Positions 1 to 5,039 of a stretch of DNA of 5,039 nucleotides are shown here, one piece after another. The notes beneath the pieces are model-generated. The model ran no database searches, was not told where the DNA came from, and saw only the letters and a program-made list of their open reading frames with translations. The first letter of the stretch is position 1; every line of letters begins with the position of its first letter. The translations under genes and the position numbers were made by a program. This DNA comes from a virus (taxonomy: Duplodnaviria; Heunggongvirae; Uroviricota; Caudoviricetes): the IMG/VR virus record IMGVR_UViG_2778261066_000006; one strand, 5' to 3'.

Positions 1-279
1 ATGCTTCCATCGGAAACGATGATCTGGCAGCCTGAGTTCACAGATAAAACACTCTCCAGGAAACCCGGGGCGGTTCAGTTCGCCCCAAAAAAGCGAATCT
101 TTATCCGTTTTGGCAAAGGCTTTGACGAGTACCTCATCATTACCTTCTTCCCAAATTTTTTCCGCCGTTTTTTCGTCGTACCCGGCAATTTCAAAAATGG
201 CCTCGGCTATTTCTGGCGACGTATTACGCAGAGATGCCCATTCACCTACGTGATGAGCTTTCGCTTCTTGAGTTGGCAT
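1..279 (-). CDS. yccJ: YccJ-family small protein; frame stays open to the window edge
   Basis: Minus-strand translation from ATG (revcomp of 277-279) gives [67 protein letters not shown]..., matching E. coli YccJ as I recall it. It lies immediately downstream of wrbA in the same orientation, as in E. coli. No stop codon is reached before position 1, and the tail after WGE differs from the YccJ C-terminus I remember. Confidence 0.8.
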
Positions 280-299: not shown

Positions 300-866
300 T
301 TAGCCGTTAAGTTTGACTGCCAGACCAGCAACATATTCCCCCTGATAACGTGCGATCGACAGCTCTTCCTGGCTGGGCTGGCGTGAACCGTCACCGCCTG
401 CGATGGTGGTTGCGCCATATGGCGTTCCGCCGCGAACCTGCGAAACGTCAAATAACTCCTGGGCCGCGTAGCCAATAGGAACAATTATCATGCCGTGGTG
501 AGCAAGGGTCGTCCAGGTTGAAGTAATGGTCTGTTCCTGGCCGCCGCCGGTGCCGGTAGAGCTAAAAACGCTCGCCAGTTTGCCGTATAGCGCACCGGAA
601 GCCCACAGGCCGCCAGTCTGATCCAGGAAGGTACGCATCTGCCCTGACATATTGCCAAAGCGGGTCGGAGTACCAAAAATAATGGCATCGTAATCTGCCA
701 GTTCTTGCGGAGTTGCAACGGGGGCAGTTTGCGTTTTACCGCCTGCTTTTTCGAATAATTGCGGCTGCATGGTTTCCGGTACACGCTTAACGACAACTTC
801 CGCGCCATCAACTTTGCTTGCACCTTCAGCGACTGCGCGCGCCATCGTTTCAATATGTCCGTACAT
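300..866 (-). pseudogene. wrbA: wrbA NAD(P)H:quinone oxidoreductase (flavodoxin-like), 5'-truncated by insertion of foreign DNA; residues ~11-198 retained
   Basis: Minus-strand translation reproduces WrbA from [33 protein letters not shown]... to ...[13 protein letters not shown], with TAA stop at 300-302. The first ~10 codons (MAKVLVLYYS in E. coli WrbA as I recall it), the RBS and the promoter are absent. Sequence above 866 is AT-rich and unrelated, with an in-frame TGA at 867-869. Confidence 0.9.
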
Positions 867-2793
867 TCATTGTGGCATTGTTAAACAATTCACCCATTGA
901 ACTAAAAATTCTACTCCATCCTTCGTTAATCATATTCGGTTTATTAGGGTCACCAGAATACACAGGATTAAAGTCACTACCCACACCTACCCCAGATGGA
1001 TGCATATTAGCGTTTTTGACTACTTCCTGATTCATAAAATCCAGTGCTTTCTTCAATGCATATAAACCAAGAGTGACGCCTCTGATTTGTGGAATCATTG
1101 AAGCTAATGCTAACGCTGTTTCATAACCGTCATCAGCATAACCAATTGCAAGAGCACTACCTACACCACCAGCTACACCTTTCAGTTTTCCACCACCTTT
1201 ACCAGTAGCTACCTGACCAGCCACCTGATTAGCTCTTGTACCTAACGTTGTGATTGCTCTTGTCAGGTTCATAACCCCTGTAGTAGCACTGAATAGTGTC
1301 TTTGCAGATAACGCTATAGCAAGACCTTTGACAAAATTGATAAAACCATCACCGACTTCATCAAGTAGTTTTCGTTTAGTGTCATCAAGGCTGTAATAGG
1401 TCTTCTTAATCTGTAGAATCCAGCCTTCAAGGTGATTGTTAAAGATACGGATGTCATCTACACCAGCTTTAAGCATGTCGATAAGTCCACCGATAGCATC
1501 ACCAGCGATAGAAGAACTCATCCCCATTTCACTAAGCAGGTTACTCAGGCTGGATAAGAAGCCGTTTAACTCATCCTGTGAACCTGAGAAGATTTTCACC
1601 ATCGTATCATCCCAGTTGTTAGCCAGTTTCCCTAAAGCTGTCTGAGTGCTCTTAGCGACTTCAGCCCAGCCACCTGCTTTATCAATCATCAAGCCCATCT
1701 GTTTAGCGACTTTAGGGAGAGTATCAGCGGAAAGAATCTTCCCGTTTTTCATGGCTGCATCAAGCTCTGTAGCAGTCATACCCAATGCTTCAGCGAATAG
1801 TTTAAATGCACCTGCCATACGGTCACCTAACTGACCACGAAGTTCTTCAGCCTGAATCTTGCCCTTGCTCGCCATCTGCTCAAAAGCTTTCAAAATGCCG
1901 TTTAGCTCGTCGTTAGAAAGCCCCATTAAGCGACTCATAGCCGTTGCATTACCAAATAGCTCCTGTGTCTGTTCCTGTGACATAGAACCCTGAGCACCTG
2001 CTGCAAACTTAGCGTAGCTTGATAGCCCTTCAGAGATATTAAGACCTGTCTTGTCTGCTAAATTTCGAATAAATACCTCAGCTTCAGAGGCTTTATCACC
2101 AAGTACAAACTTAGCGGCTCTCTGTGCGGAATCTCGTTTAAGACCTGCATTCATAATGGCCTTGTAAGCGTTAAGAGCACCCATCACAGAGTAAAATGCA
2201 CCAGATAATTTAATCGCATTGCTTGCAAGATTATTAAATGCGTCGCTTGTATTGTTAATGCTGGCGGTCTTTGTCTGTGACCTGAGTTTATTCAACGTTT
2301 CACGAAGAGATTGATTTAATTTTGCAAGTTCAGCGTTAAACTTTTCACTTCCAATATTACCAGCCTTACCGCTTAAGCTGTAATACTGTGCTTTAAACAT
2401 TTTAGCCATCAGCGGATTAATATCACCAAGCTTAGACATATTCACGCTATGCGCTGCTGTGATTGCTCTGTTTCCGCTAATTCGTGGCTGTCTTGGTTGT
2501 TTTGGAGGATTAACAGTGTCATTAAATCTGGTGGTAAACTGGAAAGCTTTAGTATTTCTTGCTCTCTGTTCAATCTTGTCAAAGGTCTTATTAAACTTCC
2601 TTTCAAGCTGCCCTAAAGAAGCCGTTAAATTACTATCAAGCTGCTTTGTATTAATCCTGAAACCTTTGTTAAGGTTCTTTTCAATTCTTTGTGCTGACTG
2701 CAAAGCTGCCTTTTCAACTCTTTGCAAGCCCTTAATAACGTCCTCATTGAAGCTTAGCTCAACGATAAAACTATCAACTGTGAATTTGCTCAT
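850..2793 (-). CDS. phage tail tape measure-like protein (647 aa)
   Basis: Long ORF with SD AAGAGGTGA (revcomp of 2801-2809) 7 nt upstream of the ATG. It is alpha-helical, Ala/Lys/Gly-rich and of low complexity. The internal segment ...[57 protein letters not shown]... resembles the conserved tape-measure N-terminal-type domain. Gly-rich hydrophobic stretches near the C-terminus ([48 protein letters not shown]) are typical of tape measure proteins. Domain assignment is by recognition, not by search. Confidence 0.6.
853..870. other. Host/foreign junction inside wrbA (putative att core/boundary); exact crossover not determinable from one junction
   Basis: wrbA identity ends at ~866/867, and composition changes abruptly from GC-rich to AT-rich across this point. 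Confidence 0.6.
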
Positions 2794-2823
2794 TCATATT
2801 TCACCTCTTAAGTGTTCATATAC

Positions 2824-2875
2824 AAAAAAGGGAGAAACTACCGATATCACTCGATAATCTCTCCCGTTGATTTTT
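2824..2875 (-). terminator. Weak hairpin between the 69-aa ORF and the tape-measure-like ORF (GGGAGA/TCTCCC stem, 24-nt loop, T-runs on both sides); possible attenuator or partial terminator
   Basis: 6-bp stem 2830-2835/2860-2865, flanked by AAAAAA (2824-2829) and TTGATTTTT (2867-2875). The large loop makes it a weak candidate. Confidence 0.25.
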
Positions 2876-2892
2876 ACCCAACCAATTCTTTT

Positions 2893-3102
2893 TTAATGTC
2901 TGACAAGATAATGTAATTCCGTTTCACCTATGATTTGAGCATCAGAAGGAATACGGTCAATACACCACTTTGGAATCTTGCGTGTTTTTGGTTTGTGTGA
3001 GGTGATAACTTGACGTTTGTTTTTAATTCTTAAGGCTGGATTGGCTTGTAACTTTAAGTTTTCACAAACAGACCGAATAGTCTCTAGACGCTCTTCAAAC
3101 AT
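2893..3102 (-). CDS. hypothetical protein (69 aa), basic
   Basis: ORF with strong SD AAGAGGTGA (revcomp of 3106-3114) 3 nt upstream of the ATG, starting 23 nt after the stop of the upstream 236-aa ORF (operon-like). No recognisable domain. Confidence 0.55.
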   Translation of the reverse strand: MFEERLETIRSVCENLKLQANPALRIKNKRQVITSHKPKTRKIPKWCIDRIPSDAQIIGETELHYLVRH

Positions 3103-3125
3103 TAATCACCTCTTTTAATTCATAG

Positions 3126-3836
3126 TTAAAGTGTCTTGCTATACTTCTGAGAAATCTTAGTAAGCTGCTCAATATCAGCCTGCATAGCAATCTTCTTCTG
3201 CGTTTCATAGTCACTGATTAGTTGCTTCATAGCTCTAAGCTGGTTAGCAAGCTCTTGCTTAAATCTGTTTAATTTTTTGCTATGACGCTCAAGTAGATTC
3301 TTTTCAGCTAACTGACAAATCTCTTCATCTGTTTTATCAGACAGTAAAATATATGAACCTGTACCGCGTGAAGCTGGTCTAACATCAATTAAACGGAATC
3401 CTTCAGGGATGTTTTGAAGAACTTTTGAGATATTCTCTCTTGCTGTACCAAAACCATCATTATCTTCAACTGAGTAATATACGAATGGATTTTGTCTAAT
3501 TTCCACTTCAATATCAAAATCAGTTGGCTTTTCAGTCTCTTCAAAGTTCTTCACATTGTCGTAAGCGTCATCTAATCTAAGGCGCTGTGCTTTTAACTGT
3601 GGGTAATATTCACGCTCAAGATTAAATAGTGCTTCAGTTTTACCAATATCGGGCATCTCTTGAGGCTCAGGCGTCACAAAGATGATTTCCTTTGGTGACA
3701 TCTTTAGCGATTGCTCAAGCTTAATTCTTTCATCGTGTTCTTTACGCTGAATAGTGATAGCTGGATGTTCAGTCTGTGGCGACCAGTCACCGAAGCTATC
3801 AATCTTTTTACCGTTAATGTAAATATCGTTTGTCAT
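3126..3836 (-). CDS. hypothetical protein (236 aa), acidic/charged with predicted coiled-coil C-terminus
   Basis: ORF with SD AAGAGGA (revcomp of ~3844-3850) ~7 nt upstream of the ATG. Same AT-rich composition as its neighbours. First gene of an apparent 236aa-69aa-(tape measure) transcription unit. No recognisable domain. Confidence 0.7.
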   Translation of the reverse strand: MTNDIYINGKKIDSFGDWSPQTEHPAITIQRKEHDERIKLEQSLKMSPKEIIFVTPEPQEMPDIGKTEALFNLEREYYPQLKAQRLRLDDAYDNVKNFEETEKPTDFDIEVEIRQNPFVYYSVEDNDGFGTARENISKVLQNIPEGFRLIDVRPASRGTGSYILLSDKTDEEICQLAEKNLLERHSKKLNRFKQELANQLRAMKQLISDYETQKKIAMQADIEQLTKISQKYSKTL

Positions 3837-3865
3837 TGTTTTTTCCTCTTCTAAGCTAAAGTATT

Positions 3866-3951
3866 TCAGTTTTTAAAAAGCACACCTGACAGCCTACAAA
3901 CTTAGAAGAGACTTAAAAGGCGGTTTGCCAAGTATGCTTTTTAAAAACTGA
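3866..3951. repeat. Perfect 17-bp inverted repeat pair (TCAGTTTTTAAAAAGCA at 3866-3882; TGCTTTTTAAAAACTGA at 3935-3951) flanking a 52-bp spacer; candidate operator or regulatory element upstream of the 236-aa gene
   Basis: Directly read: the two arms are exact reverse complements. Each arm also contains the palindrome TTTTTAAAAA. The pair sits 30-115 bp upstream of the 236-aa ORF start. Confidence 0.5.
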
Positions 3952-3986
3952 ATAGCCCTAGATAATTTCTTATAAAGGGCTATTCA
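3949..3986 (-). terminator. Candidate intrinsic terminator (11-bp stem TGAATAGCCCT/AGGGCTATTCA, 16-nt loop) followed on the minus strand by G+UUUUU
   Basis: Perfect 11-bp stem read directly. On the minus-strand transcript the stem is followed immediately by GTTTTTAAAAAGC. Could terminate transcripts from the 107-aa gene, though it lies ~330 nt downstream of that stop. Confidence 0.4.
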
Positions 3987-4315
3987 TAAGGTGAAGAAAT
4001 TAAAAAAAACATCTGAAGGATTCAATAACGAATGAACAAGAGTACTTTTCGAGATGACCTCTCAGACTAACCTGAAAGGCCATGTAGCGAAAAGCATTGC
4101 ACCTTTCCAACTCAGAATATAGTTATCATCGATGTAGAGACGATTAATAGTTTAATTCAGGAAGAATTGCTCTCCCCTATATACAATCTTCTCATGCTTA
4201 AGGTTATTTGTCAACAGCTTTTTAACAGATTGGTAACATCAATTCTTATTTACTGTGTTACCCACCCAGCAACCAACAAATAGCCCTAGCAACGTCCAAG
4301 CAATTATTAAACCCA

Positions 4316-4639
4316 TTAGTGAACCCTCACAGAATCCGTAACCAGAATATTGTCAGCGTGCAAAATTACTATAGCCGCCTTGAGATATTGTTCAGGGCTA
4401 ACACTGTATTTGTTCGTTTCTTCGATAATAATACGCTTCATGTTTGAGTCTGTAATTGGTAGCATCATTCGAGGCTCGTTAAACTCCACCGACTGAATAA
4501 AGTCAGAGATGCTTTCCGCATTATCAGCCATTAACTCTAACAACTTATCAAAGTCAATGATAATACCTGCATCAGTGAAAGCCTGAATCATCATGGTGGT
4601 GTCGCTATCAACGAAAATCTGTAATTCGTAATTATTCAT
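4316..4639 (-). CDS. hypothetical small acidic protein (107 aa; ~18 Asp/Glu vs ~7 Lys/Arg)
   Basis: ORF with SD AGGAGA (revcomp of 4649-4654) 9 nt upstream of the ATG, TAA stop at 4316-4318. No recognisable domain. Confidence 0.65.
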   Translation of the reverse strand: MNNYELQIFVDSDTTMMIQAFTDAGIIIDFDKLLELMADNAESISDFIQSVEFNEPRMMLPITDSNMKRIIIEETNKYSVSPEQYLKAAIVILHADNILVTDSVRVH

Positions 4640-4910
4640 TTCTTAAAATCTCCTTTTTACCAGACCTCCTCAATCGCTCTGTAACGAGCTAAACAGTCTT
4701 TTTCAGGGGTAGCCTGTACAGTGGTATTACCCACCCTAAAATAAGGTAGTTTTTTGCGTTAGAATGCGATTGAGAGCGTCTGAGAAGCTGTTTTTCTAAT
4801 TTCTCTTAAAGTCTCGGACTTGCATAAGATTTTTTGGTCTGGTATCGGCTCTGTTACCATTTCGATGGATAATTTGCTTGTTGGATTGATAGCCATGATA
4901 AAGGAACCAG

Positions 4911-4933
4911 GGTGATGCTGCCAACTTACTGAT
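4911..4933 (+). repeat. IS1 left terminal inverted repeat (IRL)
   Basis: GGTGATGCTGCCAACTTACTGAT is the canonical IS1 terminal repeat. Confidence 0.85.
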
Positions 4934-4965
4934 TTAGTGTATGATGGTGTTTTTGAGGTGCTCCA

Positions 4966-5039
4966 GTGGCTTCTGTTTCTATTAGCTGTCCCTCCTGTTC
5001 AGCTACTGACGGGGTGGTGCGTAACGGCAAAAGCACCGC
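4966..5039 (+). CDS. insA: IS1 InsA (N-terminal 24 codons; partial at window edge), GTG start
   Basis: Translation from GTG at 4966 gives (M)[24 protein letters not shown], the InsA N-terminus including its CxxC motif. Confidence 0.85.
   Translation, partial: [24 protein letters not shown]

Follow-up and report, generated by a model that had tools for sequence, protein, structure and literature searches.

A decayed wrbA-inserted element of Escherichia albertii belongs to a family of serine-integrase islands with tail genes related to those of Felix O1-like phages

The wrbA gene is a classical integration site of the Stx phages. Among the satellite-type islands closest to the element described here, PLE, to our knowledge, remodels capsids (TcaP) and encodes neither a tape measure protein (TMP) nor a tube initiator, and the cf-PICIs encode capsid and packaging functions and borrow their tails. 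The two tail proteins in question are known from the structure of phage Bas63, in which gp18 forms a tube-like hexamer with a C-terminal extension of ~100 residues and the last 25 residues of the TMP are modelled in the baseplate hub, against the puncture apparatus (PMC12609058). Here, we analyzed a window of 5,039 bp, which is the entire Escherichia albertii contig PTRT01000178.1 in reverse complement, with copies of insertion sequences (ISs) at both ends. Its positions 867–4910 are what is left of the central part of a small integrative island, which had inserted at the 5' end of wrbA in an E. albertii lineage. Intact relatives of this island carry a TMP and a tube initiator homologous to those of the Ounavirinae, and on balance we think it likely that the family represents undescribed satellites, or at least hitchers, of strictly virulent myophages of the Felix O1 type.

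Of 5,426 complete E. coli genomes, 480 carry relatives of 867–4910 with 85–93% identity, without exception on the chromosome; no plasmid matches to this segment were obtained. The full 11.2-kb element matched 570 genomes of the same set (~10%) in mosaic pieces of 80–95% identity that spanned 9–11 kb, the intact islands being 11–12 kb long when free of IS insertions. At least three integration sites are used, with the same gene order in each. Strains I2, 2013C-3492, and EC361 carry their copies between wrbA and ymdF; in J31 (locus L004), the island lies inside the yecE/DUF72 gene, and in OkiPb01716 (L005) between tonB and yciI. In J31 and OkiPb01716, a large recombinase gene is annotated at the element end, the OkiPb01716 gene being interrupted by ISEc12. 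Comparison of the I2 locus (L001) with an empty site defined an element of 11,159 bp with precise boundaries, whose crossover falls within wrbA codon 5 or 6, after ...AAAGCAC. The insertion rebuilds a 201-aa wrbA, in which a new start and N terminus (MSVKARILVLYYS...) replace MAKVLVLYYS... (L001 16505–17110, likewise in L002 and L006). The rebuilt gene is probably still functional; in the window it was lost through deletion.

The islands begin with the serine integrase gene next to attL, followed by the genes for the tube initiator, the TMP, and proteins of 69, 236, and 107 aa, and then by variable small genes (HTH, HNH, AP2-like). In the intact element, the integrase is a large serine recombinase of 547 aa (phrog_95, E 2.6e-78) that combines Resolvase, Recombinase, and Zn_ribbon_recom domains. 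The 262-aa tube initiator ('baseplate' protein) contains a Dit-like domain, and the adjoining TMP has 726 aa. The subtype found in I2, OkiPb01716, and EC361 additionally encodes a lambda-O/DnaD-like replication initiator (phrog_8102, 428, 678) and a Dam methylase. The subtype to which the window belongs carries an HNH gene, three small open reading frames (ORFs), a gene for a 185-aa protein, and ~2–3 kb without long ORFs. The 236-aa and 107-aa proteins both have homologues in E. coli, Shigella, Salmonella, and E. albertii, to which Citrobacter is added for the 236-aa protein and E. fergusonii for the 107-aa protein. No capsid, portal, terminase, sheath, tube, or baseplate wedge genes were detected in the islands, their structural genes being those of the TMP and the tube initiator only, and with their small size and limited gene content the islands appear unable to build a virion by themselves. 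An integrase of their own and defined att sites are present in the family and were deleted in the window copy.

The relation of the islands to phages proved narrow. A megablast search of 867–4910 against 50,697 phage records returned only stretches of 130–156 bp at 79–83% identity, all inside the TMP genes of Felixounavirus and Mooglevirus phages. At the protein level, the 262-aa tube initiator matched PDB chain 9ndy_A, the tube initiator protein gp018 of phage Bas63 (E 1e-115), and the intact island TMP matched 9ndy_F, Bas63 gp017 (E 5e-75). In Mooglevirus SFPB, the TMP and gp18-homologue genes are adjacent and in the same order as in the islands. The tube initiator of I2 is 59% identical to SFPB_012, and those of J31 and OkiPb01716 reach 85–86% identity to SFPB over the N-terminal 176 residues; full-length identity of the island protein to its counterparts in Felix O1, wV8, and EC6 is ~76%, and 94% over 174 aa was found with the Felixounavirus MET-P1-301. 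Among the 301 phage matches of the tube initiator, all those listed were Ounavirinae-type except for a weak one to Pseudoalteromonas phage H101 (30% identity). In its layout, a conserved N-domain followed by a divergent C-terminal tail, the island protein agrees with gp18.

Identity between the island and phage TMPs is only ~28% overall and patchy: in windows of 40 alignment columns, 35 of 40 positions are identical at the N terminus (88%) and 32 of 40 in one central window (80%), with 10–40% elsewhere, and the C-terminal LL(S/N)SS(F/Y)PED motif is retained in the intact island copies. When four whole elements were compared with the 88.5-kb SFPB genome using tblastx, no shared gene besides the TMP and gp18 regions was revealed. 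All phage records matched by the islands are annotated as lytic Ounavirinae. On these alignments, the island TMP and tube initiator are homologues of Ounavirinae gp17 and gp18, kept in the phage gene order. As a side observation, homology to the island TMP begins 84 bp upstream of the annotated start of SFPB_011, where an in-frame ATG is located at 5556 (L020 5556–5640); SFPB_011 is therefore probably annotated too short.

The similarity also extends to non-coding DNA. The distal part of the islands matched SFPB 74,536–74,616 at 82–87% identity and 65,914–66,044 at 75–77% (island coordinates L001 27245–27307, L005 ~18453–18740, and L004 ~18296–18430). The two patches are 8.5 kb apart in the phage and ~100–160 bp apart in the island; the first lies between divergent operons and contains the palindromic GGATATCC...GATATC. 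The patch-bearing region matched 253 phage records, almost all of them with Ounavirinae-type names and one of a Staphylococcus phage, and in nearly all records listed the patch fell in unannotated DNA, inside a ~1.6-kb ORF-free gap of the phages. Counts of 12-mers shared between the elements and the phage genome gave only noise. Together with the TMP patches of ~80% identity, the non-coding patches indicate repeated exchange between the islands and Ounavirinae genomes. Separately, an identical terminator hairpin of 23–24 bp (AGCCTCCTTAATTGGGGGCTTTTT) was noticed in both island and phages.

The window holds a decayed copy of such an island. The segment 867–4910 is markedly AT-rich, as the earlier note on this DNA had stated, with a measured GC content of 39.3% rather than in the mid-30s (52.7% in 1–866, 37.1% in 2794–4910, and 41.6% in the TMP gene), and all its long ORFs are on the minus strand. 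The gene next to wrbA (850–2793, minus strand) encodes a TMP of 647 aa instead of 726. The product matched Pfam TMP_3 (E 6.7e-21; 75.3 bits with a cut-off of 41), TIGR02675 (E 6.7e-16; 58.4 bits with a cut-off of 21.35), and phrog_4036 (E 6.6e-92), scoring above the cut-offs of the TMP families, and is a genuine tape measure protein. It stops at residue 647 of 726 and is devoid of the last ~80 residues, including the SSFPEDD end; in a windowed alignment with intact and phage TMPs, its tail was found to consist of four codons and a stop codon of antisense wrbA. An identical 647-aa protein is deposited under E. albertii names (WP_024164773.1), most other members listed for its cluster having 726 aa.

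The truncation was mapped to 865–866, where alignment with strain I2 revealed a junction of wrbA and the interior of the TMP gene with a 2-bp AT microhomology. The homology to wrbA stops at 866 and that to the TMP gene begins at 865, 254 bp before the 3' end of the gene. A total of ~2.9 kb of the intact insertion is missing from the window: 15 bp of wrbA (GGAATAATAAAGCAC), attL, the genes of the integrase and the tube initiator, and the 254 bp at the 3' end of the TMP gene. The site is thus an illegitimate deletion junction with no att site, and it is shared by five E. albertii assemblies that differ at 0–1 positions across ~4.8 kb. The earlier note had described a tape-measure-like first gene reading into the att site and had suggested, as one option, a prophage end remodelled by deletion with IS1 nearby. 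The gene assignment and the deletion were borne out, whereas the supposed att site turned out to be the deletion junction. IS1 is indeed present in the window; as the cause of the deletion it was rejected because no IS sequence was seen at the 866 junction in alignments with I2 and the empty site, and IS1 splits the HNH gene instead.

This HNH endonuclease gene is represented in the window by a 3' fragment cut by IS1 (4796–4910, minus strand), with a called product of 42 aa and a weak HNH_3 match. Intact versions in loci L002 and L004 encode 95 aa (HNH_3, E 1.8e-8). In the longer E. albertii locus L013, the gene is split by IS1 and then by ISEc12, and its remainder resumes past both. In all, IS1 and two IS21-family elements were inserted in the distal part of the E. 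albertii copy, the remnant extending past IS1, ISEc12, and the third IS as far as a small resolvase gene, which lies ~13 kb away from the deletion junction. Since neither the integrase gene nor attL is left, the window copy is predicted to be unable to excise and is best regarded as a fixed, immobile fossil.

For the intact islands, the specific sequence relation to a candidate helper, with protein and non-coding homology restricted almost wholly to the Ounavirinae, points to a satellite lifestyle. A more detailed version of this reading, which we propose only tentatively, is that of a new satellite family with its own TMP and tube initiator, hybrid tails, and recognition or activation through the non-coding DNA copied from the phage. 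In the satellite reading as such, infection by a member of the Ounavirinae would switch the island on, and the island would then excise through its serine integrase and replicate from its own initiator. Its TMP and tube initiator would enter the baseplate hub of the helper and seed tail-tube assembly, and particles built by the helper would carry the island DNA out of the cell, to the detriment of the phage.

Several points weigh against the satellite reading. The life cycle as a whole, i.e., induction, excision, replication, and packaging, is inferred. Among the island proteins, none was recognized as a capsid remodeller, a small terminase, or another known hijacking function, the hallmark 236-, 69-, and 107-aa proteins had no detectable function in our searches, and in the HNH subtype, including the window, there is no recognizable replication initiator. 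The four matches in IMG/VR, with UViG identifiers in the style of isolate genomes and lengths of 24–26 kb, are probably predicted proviruses and not virion-derived. We know of no precedent for a satellite that supplies its own TMP. The records of phages KMM2, JLBYU28, and Seyj1-1 are all opened in the patch-bearing ~1.6-kb ORF-free gap, and the opening of several independently deposited phage genomes within this gap is suggestive only. Direct terminal repeats of Felixounavirus have been reported from PhageTerm (PMC11737134); a location of the patch in such a repeat is unsupported, the ends of the KMM2 record overlapping by 64 bp and those of JLBYU28 and Seyj1-1 not at all. In a literature search that left most subscription-journal papers uncovered, we found nothing linking satellites to Felixounavirus or Ounavirinae, no paper on a serine-integrase island at wrbA, and no description of the islands beyond a generic count of 'integrative elements' in 2013C-3492, and the novelty is accordingly provisional.

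The same two tail genes lend themselves to another interpretation, namely an anti-phage defence island whose diverged TMP and tube initiator would poison or decoy the assembly of Felix O1-like tails, with no packaging involved. A TMP that keeps the N terminus, the core, and the hub motif with the rest diverged (10–40%) suits a partner-binding, altered subunit, and so does a tube initiator combining a near-identical tube-like N-domain with a divergent C-terminal extension. The conserved terminator before the TMP gene suggests conditional expression, and one published report (PMC11364771) provides a precedent for interference with tail assembly by mobile elements. However, no PADLOC model was matched, the only match in a scan of ten island proteins being at chance level (E 0.004), and the serine integrase, att sites, replication initiator, and phage-like non-coding DNA speak for a self-mobilising element, beyond a defence cargo. 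We regard the defence island, the main rival of the satellite reading, as rather unlikely, bearing in mind that it is compatible with the satellite reading and that the two may coexist. That a full-size, temperate, Felix O1-related myovirus prophage was cut down by deletions and left the islands as random remnants seems improbable to us. Two contiguous tail genes in phage order would fit such an origin, as would the deletion and IS insertions in the window copy, but one layout of 9–11 kb recurs in hundreds of genomes at three or more sites, the ends being precise and an integrase being present in each case. Moreover, sheath, tube, wedge, capsid, portal, and terminase genes are absent, only the TMP and gp18 regions match Mooglevirus, the matched phages are annotated as lytic, and the matches in E. 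coli genomes are all short and island-sized.

Two further explanations are hardly credible. A remodelled end of a lambdoid Stx prophage of the 933W/Sp5 type has only the location in wrbA in its favour. The segment shows no nucleotide similarity to deposited Stx or lambdoid phages, its TMP belongs with those of the Ounavirinae, the 236-aa protein is without a homologue in phages, and the intact relatives carry a large serine recombinase and no tyrosine integrase, the window copy being without an integrase altogether. The doubt expressed in the earlier note that this is the end of a canonical lambdoid Stx2 prophage was thus justified, since only Ounavirinae TMP patches were hit among the phage records, and no full-length match to the terminus of a characterized wrbA prophage came up in that search. 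Its alternative of a different, possibly uncharacterised, element at wrbA agrees with what we found, the relatives being serine-integrase islands of ~11 kb. A transposon is suggested by the name 'transposase', which the 236-aa protein bears in most NCBI/RefSeq records. This carries almost no weight for us: neither a transposase nor any other domain was found in the protein by Pfam, NCBIfam, and PHROGs, it has no relative in PDB and is predicted to form long helices, the element ends are serine-integrase att junctions, and no DDE, HUH, or serine catalytic domain and no terminal inverted repeats with target duplications were seen.

The other genes of the window lie between the TMP gene and IS1. 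A gene for a 69-aa basic protein (2893–3102, minus strand) is kept beside the TMP gene across the island family, with an equivalent position in L001, L002, and L004–L006. Its product had no match in Pfam, PHROGs, NCBIfam, or PADLOC and no similarity to the phage chaperone SFPB_010. The next gene (3126–3836, minus strand) encodes the 236-aa helical protein, the hallmark of the family. No match was obtained for it in Pfam, PHROGs, NCBIfam, PADLOC, or PDB, nor in a tblastn search against phages, and it has no similarity to the phage chaperones encoded upstream of the TMP gene. It forms 3,087 clusters at 90% identity. An exhaustive HMMER search of 1.84 billion proteins returned only 19 clusters at 50% identity, none of them informative, and scans of contigs added one close relative among genome contigs and four among viral contigs. 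The AlphaFold model (pLDDT 71) predicts mostly long helices and gave no significant fold match in BFVD (best E 0.09). A role as a tail chaperone or scaffold is a guess. The designation 'transposase' is attached to this protein in hundreds of NCBI/RefSeq records; because no domain is detectable in it, the label is unfounded and looks like a propagated annotation error. The third gene (4316–4639, minus strand), conserved in the island family, encodes a 107-aa acidic protein. It is represented by 3,315 clusters from Escherichia, Shigella, and Salmonella and had no family match in Pfam, PHROGs, or NCBIfam, one UniRef name citing DUF2590 without Pfam support; its AlphaFold model (pLDDT 45) is unusable.

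Two structured intergenic regions were noted. Between the 69-aa gene and the TMP gene (2830–2865, minus strand), there is a hairpin resembling an intrinsic terminator, with a 15-bp stem followed by UUUUUU and a folding energy of −23.6 kcal/mol (z −5.4). Hairpins precede the TMP gene also at L001 ~21950–22010, L002 ~21940–22010, L004 ~13010–13075, and L006 ~12950–13020. The inner-stem sequences differ among the elements and yet still pair, an indication that the hairpin is maintained, and this suggests that expression of the TMP and tube initiator may be gated by read-through or antitermination at this point. The 480-bp gap that immediately precedes the 236-aa gene holds two adjacent inverted repeats (3865–3986), with arms of 27 nt at 89% complementarity and 17 nt at 88%, and they are probably an operator or terminator. 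A search of Rfam gave only sub-threshold matches in the window, reflecting the hairpins at the inverted repeats, and none in the intact element.

At the distal end of the islands, two other features were observed. An ORF-poor stretch of 2–2.8 kb (L004 16363–19170, L002 ~25350–27311, and L013 past the IS copies) contains no ORF of more than 72 aa in any frame, is 76–92% conserved between the E. albertii and E. coli copies, and has direct repeats at spacings of ~95 and 192 bp. Neither an Rfam family nor a tRNA gene was detected in it, and the elements overall are without tRNA genes. Conceivable roles are those of an origin, a packaging region, or a long non-coding RNA. Furthermore, some islands carry at this end a second, small serine recombinase of 182–189 aa, of the Hin/Gin invertase type (phrog_125; L002 27311–27880, L005 18910–19452, and L013 16–564, the last one in the E. 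albertii remnant).

Exact-sequence matches identify the source of the window as E. albertii (TW07627; NBRC 107761 = DSM 17582). The host flank of the window comprises two genes with ~91.5% nucleotide identity to E. coli yccJ/wrbA, which agrees with this source. The NAD(P)H:quinone oxidoreductase gene wrbA (300–866, minus strand) lacks its first 10 codons, as judged against L022 (empty site) and L001 (intact insertion), and a 188-aa ORF starting with MYGHIETM remains. The neighbouring yccJ is truncated at its 3' end (78–279, minus strand), its frame diverging from the E. coli protein after ...SLFWGE. It is interrupted after codon 67 by the end of an IS3-family insertion sequence (1–77), at which the contig ends. 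In longer E. albertii contigs, a 404-aa HTH_Tnp_1/rve transposase gene is found at the yccJ break. In another E. albertii assembly, yccJ is intact (75 aa), and therefore the IS3 insertion is younger than the wrbA–TMP deletion. The E. coli yccJ/wrbA matches begin at window position 75, and thousands of additional matching places, plasmids included, are consistent with IS sequence at 1–74. At the opposite end, the contig stops inside IS1 (4911–5039); we take the inverted repeat at the 4911 end to be that of IS1, and the adjoining gene in L012 and L013 encodes Zn_ribbon_InsA, HTH_Tnp_IS1, and DDE_Tnp_IS1 domains. The contig is short because repeated IS copies flank it on both sides, and its sequence is identical to a stretch within two multi-megabase contigs.

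The window itself is a modest result, being a defunct copy that is fixed in a single lineage of E. albertii. Felix O1-like phages are widely used in Salmonella typing, biocontrol, and therapy cocktails; if they are parasitised or blocked by a common chromosomal island, this would bear on their efficacy and on predictions of their host range. If the satellite reading is true, the islands would provide an E. coli/Salmonella counterpart to the Vibrio PLE/ICP1 pair and a new satellite strategy, in which tail-core proteins are supplied instead of the capsid being remodelled. In any case, a wrbA insertion in Escherichia should not by default be read as a Stx prophage: the 933W and Sp5 prophages have the wrbA locus in common with the islands and are unrelated to them in sequence, size, integrase family, and gene content.

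Among the described systems, the islands differ from P4-like elements and cf-PICIs in different respects. Like P4, they would be integrated elements of Enterobacteria of ~10 kb that depend on a myophage, the P4-like elements often carrying defence cargo; the helper, however, would be a virulent member of the Ounavirinae, whereas that of P4 is the temperate P2. With the cf-PICIs they share the plan of a satellite-type island that encodes part of the virion structural module and takes the rest from a phage, but the parts are opposite, two tail-core proteins being encoded in the islands and no recognizable capsid or packaging genes, and the integrase type and gene content also differ. The hallmarks of PICIs, cf-PICIs, and P4 (tyrosine integrase, AlpA, primase-replicase, small terminase, capsid; Psu/Sid/Delta) were absent from the Pfam, PHROGs, and NCBIfam scans of the element proteins searched, in which P4-specific profiles were not included. 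The direct homologues of the two tail genes are in the Felixounavirus/Mooglevirus tail module (Bas63 gp17 and gp18; PDB 9ndy), with 59–86% identity in the N-domain of the tube initiator; two genes and short non-coding patches are common to both, and the rest of the 85–90 kb phage genome is absent from the islands. The likeness to PLE lies in the small chromosomal island with a large serine recombinase, in the replication initiator of some copies, in the HNH homing-type genes, and, judged from homology, in an apparent virulent myophage partner with signs of sequence exchange. No PLE protein family was among the Pfam and PHROG matches, PLE sequences themselves not having been compared directly; the host and the helper lineage differ from those of PLE.

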